The notes below the pieces were generated by a model that ran no database searches, was not told the origin of the DNA, and worked only from the letters and a program-made list of their open reading frames with translations. Both the position numbers and the translations under genes were made by a program. Positions 35,580-37,926 of a stretch of DNA of 64,000 bases are shown in pieces; position 1 is the stretch's first letter, and the number at the start of each line of letters is the position of its first letter. The stretch lies in NCBI RefSeq assembly GCF_053078305.1, contig NZ_CP166879.1; one strand, 5' to 3'.

Positions 35580-37772
35580 ATGTCCGATAGCAAACCATGG
35601 GGAGCTACGCCTGATGAGTGGTTTCATTTCGACCTGGTATTGGGGAGAACTGATCATCTTCTCCCAGTTGTATGTAACCCCGGTGCGACCATATCCCCTG
35701 ATAGTAAACTGAAAGCGCTGGGTAAGACGCCAAGTCGCTATAACCGGGACCGCCAGGTCACCGGTATTGCTCAATGGACCGGGTATGTTGTTACTGAGCA
35801 TGATTTTGCCCGCTGGTCGAATGAACCGGATTATGGCATCTGCGTGCGTACAGGCCATGGCTGGCTGGCGCTGGACGGCGATAGCGAAGATGAAGACATT
35901 CAGGCAGATATTCGCAAAACGCTTGTGCAACTTCTGGGGGAGTTGCCGCCGCGACGCTGGCGAGCAAACAGTAATAAGTGTCTGTATCTGCTGGCCGTTG
36001 ATGGTGATTTCCGTAAGCGTATCCATCGCCTGGCGGGGGATATGGGCATTATCGAGTTGCTGGCGAACGGGCAGCAGTTCGTTGCCTGTGGTACGCACAG
36101 CAGCGGCGCGCGTATTGAATGGGACGGTGGTTTGCCGGATGAACCTCCGGCTATTACTGGTGAGCAGCTTGAAACGCTGTGGCAGCGCCTGGCTGAACAA
36201 CTCCCTGTGTCGGTAACCACCGAAGCGGGCAACACGAAGATGCGCGACCGATCAGCATTCACGCCCGGCGCGACGGATGATACAGCTGAATATCTTGATG
36301 CCAATGGCTGGACGCTGCTGGATGGCGCAAATGGTGAACGATATATCCGCTGTCCGTTTGAAGACGGCCACAGTAGCGGGGGCGATCCAACAAGCACAGC
36401 TTATTTTCCTGCGGGAACCGCGGGCTTTGAGCAGGGGCATTTTAAATGCCTGCATGCCAGTTGTGCGCATCGTGATGACGGAGATTTCCTTAATGCCATC
36501 GGGATCCGCAACGACGATTTCGAAGATCTGACCAGCACCGAAGTGGCGGAACCTTTACCGCTGCCTGCTTTCGAGCGTGATAAATGGGGGCGTATCGAGG
36601 CAACCATCAGCAACGCAGCCAAAGCAGTAGTACGCCCTGATTTTGTGGACATCGATATTCGCTTTGACCAGTTCCGCGACGAAATCATGTTTGCCTCTGC
36701 AGGATCCGGACAATGGCGAGCATTCACCGATGCGGATTATGCGCGCCTGCGCATCACGATGGAAAAGCGGGGATTTAAACCTGTTGGTCGTGAACTTATT
36801 CGCGATGTGGTGTTACTTGCAGCCGATGAACAACCATTCGATTCAGCGATTACCTGGCTGAACGGGCTGGAGTGGGATGGCGTGCCGCGCATCGAATGTT
36901 TCTACCATACGCACTTCGGTACAGCCGACACGCCTTATACCCGTGCGGTGTCTATGTACATGTGGACCGCGTTGGCGGGGCGAGTACTGGAGCCAGGCAT
37001 CAAAGCGGATATGGTGCCGATCCTCGTTGGTCCGCAGGGCTGCGGTAAGTCTTCCGGAGTGGAGGCACTGAGCCCTGATCCTGCGTTTTTTACTGAAATC
37101 TCTTTTGCCGAAAAAGACGATGATCTCGCTCGAAAAATGCGTGGTCGGCTGGTGGCAGAGATTGGTGAACTGCGCGGACTTAATACCAAAGAGCTGGAGT
37201 CAATCAAAGCGTTTGTGACGCGTACTCACGAAAACTGGATCCCGAAATACCGGGAGTTCGCCACCCAGTTTCCTCGTCGCCTGGTGTTCGTTGGTACCAC
37301 CAATGAGGACGAATTCCTTGCGGACAAGACTGGTAACCGTCGCTGGCTCCCCGTGGAAGTGTCGAAAGTCGACGTGAAAGCGATAAAAAGAGATCTCCTT
37401 TTACTTTGGGCTGAGGCTCGTGAGGTGTTTCAGCGTCTGGGGGGTATCCAGTTCCGTGAGGCTGAACAACTGGCAGCGAGTGTCCATGAACAGTACACCA
37501 TCAAGGATGCTTGGCTTGAAACGGTAGAGAAATGGCTCGACACGCCAGACCTGATGACTAATGAACTTCCGCGAAATTGCGAATTTTTACGCGCAAGTGA
37601 TGTTTTGCGTGATGCGATTGGGCTAAATCCTGACCGCATCGGAAAACGCGAAGAAATGCGAATTAGTAATGTTTTGCAAAATTGCGGGTATAAGCGTGTC
37701 CAAAGGCGAATTGGGGGGAAAATGACTCGAATTTTTGAGGCGGTGTCCCAACCTGTACCAGCCTCAAAATAG
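35580..37772 (+). CDS. Phage replication primase-helicase (primase domain plus D5/VirE-like P-loop NTPase)
   Basis: 730 aa; Walker A GPQGCGKSS and downstream motif LVFVGTTNE; Cys/His cluster (CLHASCAH) in N-terminal half. Confidence 0.72.
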   Translation: MSDSKPWGATPDEWFHFDLVLGRTDHLLPVVCNPGATISPDSKLKALGKTPSRYNRDRQVTGIAQWTGYVVTEHDFARWSNEPDYGICVRTGHGWLALDGDSEDEDIQADIRKTLVQLLGELPPRRWRANSNKCLYLLAVDGDFRKRIHRLAGDMGIIELLANGQQFVACGTHSSGARIEWDGGLPDEPPAITGEQLETLWQRLAEQLPVSVTTEAGNTKMRDRSAFTPGATDDTAEYLDANGWTLLDGANGERYIRCPFEDGHSSGGDPTSTAYFPAGTAGFEQGHFKCLHASCAHRDDGDFLNAIGIRNDDFEDLTSTEVAEPLPLPAFERDKWGRIEATISNAAKAVVRPDFVDIDIRFDQFRDEIMFASAGSGQWRAFTDADYARLRITMEKRGFKPVGRELIRDVVLLAADEQPFDSAITWLNGLEWDGVPRIECFYHTHFGTADTPYTRAVSMYMWTALAGRVLEPGIKADMVPILVGPQGCGKSSGVEALSPDPAFFTEISFAEKDDDLARKMRGRLVAEIGELRGLNTKELESIKAFVTRTHENWIPKYREFATQFPRRLVFVGTTNEDEFLADKTGNRRWLPVEVSKVDVKAIKRDLLLLWAEAREVFQRLGGIQFREAEQLAASVHEQYTIKDAWLETVEKWLDTPDLMTNELPRNCEFLRASDVLRDAIGLNPDRIGKREEMRISNVLQNCGYKRVQRRIGGKMTRIFEAVSQPVPASK

Positions 37773-37926
37773 AGGTTGGTACATTTTAACTAATTGAATT
37801 TAAAGGTCAGTACCAACTGTACCAACTGTACCAACCTAATTACTAAGAACCCCATATATATATATAAGTCGCTTGGGGAAAAGGTTTGAAAAGAGCTGGT
37901 ACAGGTGGGTACAGGTTGGTACAGGC
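37753..37926. repeat. Iteron array (putative replication origin)
   Basis: Three tandem 9-bp repeats gtaccaact (37808..37836) and three inverted 10-bp repeats ggtacaggtN (37896..37926) flanking an AT-rich spacer with (TA)n; further CTGTACC/GGTACA copies at 37753 and 37776. Confidence 0.55.

Follow-up and report, generated by a model that had tools for sequence, protein, structure and literature searches.

Convergent iterons directly 3' of a primase-helicase gene are the probable replication origin of an Escherichia coli prophage

We analysed a 64,000-nucleotide stretch of DNA, here called the window, from contig NZ_CP166879.1 (RefSeq assembly GCF_053078305.1), which carries an Escherichia coli prophage. 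Directly 3' of the prophage gene for a 730-aa primase-helicase, here called Pri-Rep (35580..37772, + strand), nine copies of a single 9-mer, TGTACCAAC, are clustered at 37744-37923 with at most one mismatch per copy. We conclude that these repeats are probably the binding sites of Pri-Rep itself and the replication origin of the prophage, and that the origin would be of the Rep-ori type of the Staphylococcus aureus pathogenicity islands (SaPIs) and phage-inducible chromosomal islands (PICIs), with a self-loading initiator-helicase. An initial annotation, made from the sequence alone, had proposed that opposed iterons around an AT-rich element, served by the adjoining primase-helicase, constitute an origin; all available computational tests support this proposal, i.e. 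the layout is kept in 82 of 82 related loci, the iteron class follows the wing of the C-terminal winged helix of Pri-Rep, a cassette of ~280 bp has been swapped between relatives, and the helicase is homologous to that of SaPI1 Rep.

Five of the copies of TGTACCAAC are on the + strand (37744, 37754, 37809, 37818 and 37827) and four on the - strand (37775, 37895, 37905 and 37915). At a threshold of one mismatch, the 9-mer has 17 matches in the 64 kb while ~11.3 are expected; nine of the 17 are packed into 180 bp, for which the expectation is ~0.03. Moreover, when 250-bp windows were scanned without bias for the clustering of 8-mers, the segment 37701-37950 ranked first in the 64 kb with nine copies, compared to at most five in any non-overlapping window. 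This nine-copy cluster is far beyond chance, and no second cluster of TGTACCAAC was found elsewhere in the window. The three tandem 9-bp units reported initially (GTACCAACT, GTACCAACT and GTACCAACC at 37810-37836) and the three inverted units (37898-37925, 10-bp period) are present; however, the two supposedly separate repeat types, gtaccaact and ggtacaggt, turned out to be one 9-mer on opposite strands, so that the locus has a single motif in nine copies. A further copy with one mismatch, GGTACCAAC, lies isolated within the helicase codons 450 bp upstream of the cluster (37290-37298, - strand) and is probably a chance match.

The iterons start within the last codons of the Pri-Rep gene and reach 151 bp past its stop codon (TAG, 37770-37772). 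The proximal set (37744..37783) consists of two direct copies (37744-37752, TGTCCCAAC, and 37754-37762, TGTACCAGC; + strand) and one inverted copy (37775-37783, - strand) just past the stop codon, around which the set is arranged. It is followed by a first AT-rich segment, TTTTAACTAATTGAATTTAAAGGTC (37784..37808), which is partly kept across iteron classes, and by the left array (37809..37835, + strand), in which three contiguous copies of (A/T)GTACCAAC with a 9-bp period are aimed at the central spacer. The spacer (37836..37894) is 59 bp long with ~68% A+T and is the proposed unwinding and helicase-loading region. On its far side, the right array (37895..37923, - strand), composed of TGTACCAGC, TGTACCCAC and TGTACCAAC with a 10-bp period, is convergent with the left array. 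Finally, the right flank (37924..37990) holds a conserved motif, GAACAAGGAATTTTTTGCA, and lies inside the exchangeable cassette; the next gene, for a Q-type antiterminator, begins at 38054.

The dyad described initially within the AT-rich spacer was found (CCCCA at 37850-37854 and TGGGG at 37874-37878), and the run reported as (TA)7 is actually (TA)6 (37855-37866), giving the spacer sequence CCCCA-(TA)6-AAGTCGCTTGGGG, i.e. CCCCA-(TA)6-AAGTCG-CTTGGGG. With respect to duplex stability, the segment 37784-37808 provides the least stable 20 bp of the locus, and the central spacer region ranks in the lowest 0.2-2% of the window for stability. The segment also contains an integration host factor (IHF)-like match with one mismatch (37787-37799), the sole such site in the locus; matches to the IHF consensus were not enriched, and the cumulative G-C skew across the window was uninformative. 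The proximal copies at 37754 and 37775 pair as a 12-bp hairpin, which is terminator-like (RNA dG -23.5 kcal/mol, z -5.9) and followed by UUUU. As stated initially, copies of the iteron lie over the last codons of the gene (37744 and 37754), but this overlap is only incidental: variants of Pri-Rep with 723 aa stop eight codons earlier, so the same two proximal iterons are non-coding in them, and in the window the iterons encode just the disordered tail of Pri-Rep and not the wing. The tail codons at 37744-37769 (approximately the last eight, SQPVPASK) are the two proximal iterons read as protein, and in other iteron classes the tail, which is predicted to be disordered, differs with the iteron, e.g. 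EPLEPRGTT.

Pri-Rep has the organization of a replicase with an N-terminal archaeo-eukaryotic primase (AEP) primase-polymerase, a VapE-type superfamily 3 (SF3) helicase and a C-terminal winged helix. Pfam recognised a VapE-like domain (residues 427-639) and no other domain, PHROG gave matches to helicase (256/1313) and primase (1156) families, and no NCBIfam family matched the protein. In a phmmer search against the PDB, the single match was 7pds_A (E=7e-34, residues 384-657), which is PriRep1 of SaPI1 and comes from a study of staphylococcal self-loading helicases (PMC9371898). The VapE SF3 helicase of Pri-Rep is, as judged by this alignment, homologous to the SaPI1 Rep helicase. For the N-terminus, an AlphaFold model of residues 1-340, which is confident in the core only, matched exclusively AEP primase-polymerases in Foldseek at E<1e-3 (pRN1 ORF904, S. 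islandicus and phage NrS-1; E=3e-5 to 4e-4, prob 0.99-1.0), including 1rni, 3m1m and 6a9w at E=3e-5 to 6e-5. The protein also contains a putative Zn motif, CPFEDGHS...HFKCLHASC. At the C-terminus, the AF2 model has a winged helix at approximately residues 672-722 with the order H-H-H plus beta-hairpin, the wing being formed by strands E86-93/E96-103; it matched winged-helix domains including 7pds_A, with weak scores. The exclusive AEP matches together with the helicase match thus support the label primase-helicase. Pri-Rep fits the replicase architecture of AEP, Zn motif, VapE ATPase and winged helix, and an architecture of AEP, Zn motif, VirE and winged helix has already been described (Kazlauskas et al. 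2018, PMC5862659).

DNA similarity first tied the intergenic repeats to the Hamiltonella phage APSE, and in APSE-8 the same motif is present in the same places with diverged DNA between the copies. In Yersinia YeP4, with 72% DNA identity in the gene, the layout is identical but the 9-mer is another one, TAGACAACC. A scan of viral contigs added 80 loci with 71-100% identity, and 82 loci had enough downstream sequence for comparison. The iterons are directly 3' of the initiator gene in all 82, and all 82 share one layout, i.e. two to three direct copies at or near the stop codon, one inverted copy, an AT-rich stretch, three direct copies, a spacer, and two to three inverted copies. The direct trio with its 9-bp period is at the same position in nearly all related loci, the final inverted copies have a period of ~10 bp, and the position and orientation of the right array are kept across iteron classes. 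The genes downstream vary among relatives while the arrays stay the same.

The spacer is 57-63 bp long in 79 of the 82 loci, and 74 of them contain the motif CCCCAT(AT)nAAG whatever the iteron class. That this motif is kept regardless of class suggests that the spacer may serve for melting and loading in general, with the sites of specific recognition on either side of it. Similarly, the proximal set of two direct and one inverted copies is present in all classes as well as in Acidovorax ACF1 and the E. coli PICI EcCICFT073, and is therefore probably functional. In ACF1 (56% identity) the whole layout is repeated with TGTTCCTAC; in the more distant Ralstonia YO375_1 (28% identity), direct and inverted copies of CTGCCCAACC lie downstream of the gene in a looser arrangement.

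Among these loci there are about ten classes of 9-mer (TGTACCAAC, TGTCCCAAC, TGGAACCAC, TGTAACCAC, TGTTACCAC, TGTATCCAC, TGTCCCCAC, TAGACAACC, TAGACCACC and TGTAACCAA). The class-specific residues of the protein are in the beta-hairpin of the winged helix, where they follow an invariant Gly-Lys; examples of these wing signatures are MTRIF, KMRIF, KCKVW, VQRVW, LMKVW, VLKVW, KQRIW, QQRVF and QIRVW. In the window, the hairpin reads KRVQRRIGGKMTRIFE (residues 705-720; codons 37692..37739, + strand) and is the proposed determinant of iteron specificity. We examined co-variation by taking, for each segment, the pairs of loci at least 95% identical in that segment and counting those that differ in iteron class. 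For the wing (residues 701-722), none of 256 such pairs differed. By contrast, the class differed in 648 of 899 pairs for residues 641-700, in 1619 of 2025 for the helicase and in 375 of 547 for the N-terminal domain, as well as in 135 of 209 pairs for Cro and 169 of 253 for Q, i.e. in 64-80% of the pairs for every segment other than the wing. Thus, at the level of sequence, iteron class tracks only the wing of ~16 residues, and not Cro, Q or the remaining protein. This co-variation gives indirect support to the proposal that the winged helix recognises the iterons.

Comparisons of individual loci gave the same picture on a finer scale. Between the window and locus L027, the same single-base change (TGTACCAAC to TGTCCCAAC) has occurred in six of the seven strong copies, the wing has changed from MT to KM, and the 59-bp spacer has three differences. 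Between the window and locus L006, identity per 40-nt bin is 97-100% from 860 to 60 nt before the stop codon and again from ~220 nt after it; between these flanks it is just 46-85%. The exchanged cassette is therefore ~280 bp long (roughly 37712-37990) and comprises wing codons and all iterons. In the reverse search, in which the left array alone was compared with viral contigs, 15 loci were recovered and 14 of them had a Pri-Rep with the MTRIF wing directly upstream; orphan arrays without an initiator, of the kind that satellites might carry, were not found in this search. The 15th locus (L100 4509-4534) is an exact 26-nt match to the left array in an open reading frame (ORF) of a 293-kb viral contig that encodes a Val-Pro-Thr repeat; it is a coincidental coding repeat and not an origin.

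Several observations weigh against the proposal that the repeats are an origin recognised by the wing of Pri-Rep. The wing and the iterons are just 10-250 bp apart, and physical linkage therefore contributes to their co-inheritance; nevertheless, equally close flanks are uncoupled from iteron class. Moreover, APSE has the same core iteron but the wing VCRVW instead of MTRIF, and the relation is therefore many-to-one and not a strict code. The spacer melts easily, yet other DNA in the window is less stable. Finally, the database record of APSE-8 (LR794148.1, L001) annotates a putative origin in the intergenic region between cI and cro (6756-6856).

This last annotation, a 'putative origin of replication region', is an argument for placing the true origin elsewhere, e.g. 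between cI and cro, with the repeat locus serving as a cis-acting auxiliary site like crr of P4; in P4, the block of iterons that directly follows alpha on its 3' side is indeed crr and not ori. The APSE annotation, however, comes from originX, a skew method for chromosomes, and in the window the G-C skew is uninformative, no copy of the motif lies in the cI/cro region (34.6-35.6 kb), and a second cluster of the motif is lacking throughout the 64 kb. We consider an origin elsewhere quite improbable. In APSE-8, the TGTACCAACC iterons are clustered between the VirE gene and Q (L001 ~3990-4300); this intergenic cluster is probably the better candidate for the APSE origin, and the database annotation is probably misplaced. 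Alternatively, the arrays could be sites for Pri-Rep with a mainly regulatory role, either in autoregulation or as a roadblock or terminator gating read-through from the early operon into Q. This reading would fit the position of the locus, exactly between the early operon and Q, and the strong hairpin with trailing UUUU that the proximal inverted pair forms; in addition, plasmid iterons can double as control elements. However, about half of the iteron classes, and APSE too, lack the T-run after the hairpin; the conserved role of the hairpin is therefore not termination, and an intrinsic terminator was rejected in this capacity. What is conserved are the convergent arrays and the AT-rich spacer, i.e. 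the architecture of an origin; in addition, the arrays are unchanged in relatives with different downstream genes, and the homologous SaPI systems and the analogous PICI systems are proven origins. A mainly regulatory role is thus unlikely.

The repeats might also have nothing to do with replication and represent chance, an attachment site with arm sites for the integrase, or a packaging site; attP sites, too, have short repeats, direct and inverted, together with AT-rich cores. However, at least 75 E. coli chromosomes have the region intact within an integrated prophage, where it is far from the integrase end, and it is therefore not attP. Moreover, the clustering is far beyond chance, the terminase region is 3 kb away, and changes in the repeats go together with changes in the wing of Pri-Rep. 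This possibility can be regarded as effectively refuted, with hardly any probability left to it.

The origin proposed here is closest to those of SaPIs and PICIs. In SaPIs, a hexamer of the SF3 helicase Rep binds iterons via its C-terminal winged helix at an origin immediately 3' of rep; the origin has 6-12 iterons, divided into two oppositely oriented sets with an AT-rich region between them, and two hexamers are believed to self-load on either side without host loaders (PMC9371898). From its sequence, Pri-Rep would be an SF3 initiator-helicase of the same self-loading type with a C-terminal winged helix as SaPI1 Rep1 and SaPI5 PriRep5, and as in SaPI5 the primase is fused to the helicase. 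Likewise, the candidate origin is 3' of the gene, opposed iteron sets flank an AT-rich spacer, and the gene encodes an SF3 helicase related to SaPI Rep. In contrast to SaPIs, the host here is Gram-negative and the element is a complete phage and not a satellite, the iterons are 9-mers instead of penta- or hexanucleotides, there is an additional proximal set of two direct and one inverted copies over the stop codon, and the spacer is conserved across specificity classes. 

PICIs of E. coli share the SaPI organization, and EcCICFT073's pri-rep-ori segment was found experimentally to drive plasmid maintenance (Fillol-Salom et al. 2018, PMC6092414). EcCICFT073 is from the same host species, has its origin directly 3' of pri-rep, and displays a parallel layout of the 9-mer CTGTCTACC with two direct copies, one inverted, three direct and then inverted copies (NC_004431.1, L083 6261-6488). 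However, the two initiators are without similarity in BLASTP (E=3.2): Pri-Rep of EcCICFT073 is a relative of P4 alpha with 41% identity, whereas Pri-Rep of the window is VapE-type. The two elements differ as well, as the one analysed here is a full myovirus-like prophage.

The initial annotation had taken P4 alpha and its ori/crr as the model. The analogy holds in part: P4 alpha also unites a primase, an SF3 helicase and C-terminal origin binding in one protein, and in P4, too, the initiator gene has short iterons of both orientations on its immediate 3' side, beyond a terminator (crr). However, BLASTP detected no similarity between Pri-Rep and P4 alpha (E=0.67), while the positive control, Pri-Rep of EcCICFT073 against P4 alpha, gave E=1e-112. 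Furthermore, P4 is bipartite, with two separate cis elements, ori ~2 kb upstream of alpha and crr downstream, compared to a single cluster here, and its iteron sequence differs. Because of the lack of alpha similarity and the single cluster, P4 is therefore a functional analogue and not a member of the same family, and the SaPI/PICI Rep-ori replicon is the closer model.

With pRN1 ORF904 and phage NrS-1, Pri-Rep shares the fold of the N-terminal AEP primase-polymerase and the combination of this domain with an SF3 helicase and a winged helix. For pRN1, the minimal replicon is described as needing sequence downstream of orf904 (PMC4234260). These systems differ from the one here in helicase subfamily and belong to an archaeal plasmid and a deep-sea phage, respectively. 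To our knowledge, convergent arrays of 9-mer iterons have not been described for them. In lambdoid phages, the DNA-binding part of O and the iterons of ori-lambda co-vary as one module. The gene for O is also located in the early rightward operon upstream of Q; however, O is no helicase and relies on P to recruit DnaB of the host, the lambda iterons are inside the O gene, and O and Pri-Rep differ in fold and mechanism.

Because the helicases are homologous and the architecture is identical, initiation most likely follows the same mechanism as in SaPIs. In the proposed mechanism, the winged helix of Pri-Rep, and chiefly its beta-hairpin wing, would read TGTACCAAC. The two convergent three-site arrays, with their periods of 9 bp and 10 bp, would each position one helicase hexamer beside the spacer, the 59-bp A+T-rich spacer with its (TA)6 run would melt, and the two hexamers would self-load onto the single strands and move apart. 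Synthesis would be primed by the AEP primase domain of Pri-Rep itself and elongation would probably be carried out by the family-A DNA polymerase encoded by the phage. The proximal set of two direct and one inverted copies may be an auxiliary binding site that here also forms a terminator-like hairpin.

The segment to the right of the arrays has further features. A motif, GAACAWGKAATTTWTTGCA (37926-37950), lies directly right of the right array and is kept across most iteron classes, as seen at the same position in L002, L006, L027, L028, L034, L040, L052 and L074; YeP4, L074 and L006 retain just its TTTTTTGCA end, and in several relatives it opens a palindrome, TTGCA...TGCAA. Candidate roles for it are those of a primase start site, an operator or a promoter element. 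The 64 kb hold a single perfect DnaA box, TTATCCACA (37981-37989); it is placed to the right of the last iteron, at a distance of 58 bp, and upstream of Q, at a distance of 65 bp, inside a TTATCC-N8-GGATAA dyad. Among the relatives, this box is present only with one type of Q gene (20 loci), independently of iteron class and cassette. It was therefore assigned to the upstream region of Q, to which it probably belongs, and a DnaA-dependent iteron replicon with the box as part of the origin was rejected.

The element that carries the locus is a complete temperate E. coli prophage, is myovirus-like and is not a satellite. At the left end, an integrase gene adjoins the host gene yfhL. A leftward operon (24529-33840, - strand) encodes a DEAD-box helicase, a VRR-NUC protein, the family-A DNA polymerase, DUF2815 and DUF2800 proteins and an exonuclease-like protein. 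It is followed by the genes for an S24/LexA-type repressor, a Cro-like HTH protein and the 730-aa Pri-Rep, the repeat locus and Q, and after Q by lysis genes and the genes for terminase, portal, capsid, sheath, tape measure and baseplate. In total, the element exceeds 40 kb and encodes terminase, portal, protease, capsid, sheath, tape measure, baseplate, holin, endolysin and spanin, i.e. it has the virion and lysis genes of its own that a PICI, as a helper-dependent satellite, is without. At least 75 complete E. coli genomes hold at least 80% of the segment 35300-38500, always in the chromosome.

In a near-identical prophage of FDAARGOS_1059, a TIR-domain gene and a VRR-NUC gene are present where the window has two ORFs (27126-28192), and this segment may be a variable accessory or defence slot. 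PADLOC gave no matches for the ORFs 27126-27674, 27683-28189 and 25986-26780 (within 25986-28192) or for two other ORFs tested. The least stable DNA of the window is at ~62546-62580 near the far end of the prophage, and beside it five ATAACACA-like 8-mers are clustered at 62901-63250.

The type of origin proposed here is already established; what our analysis adds is an exchangeable cassette with about ten alleles, the occurrence of this origin type in full phages, and a likely re-annotation of the APSE origin. An organization that has been described as exclusive to PICIs is thus found also in complete phages, namely this E. coli prophage family, APSE, YeP4 and ACF1. If the origin is assigned correctly, it is mapped for an E. 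coli prophage family that is widespread, with members in at least 75 complete genomes, and, by conservation, for APSE, a phage of an aphid symbiont, as well. Evenly balanced, in our judgement, is the wider proposal that the ~280-bp segment with the wing and nine iterons, of which there are at least ten alleles, is a portable replication-specificity cassette, with a recognition code of the winged helix, replicon immunity and exchange of replicons between phages and satellites. If true, at least ten alleles of the cassette would circulate among nearly identical enterobacterial phages, some of them differing by one base in nearly every strong iteron and by two wing residues. The matched wing and iteron alleles (MT with TGTACCAAC versus KM with TGTCCCAAC) would provide minimal-difference pairs for how a winged helix reads DNA, and such pairs could serve to build orthogonal phage-derived replicons. 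For the phages themselves, a 'replicon immunity' would prevent prophages and satellites that reside together from firing one another's origins.

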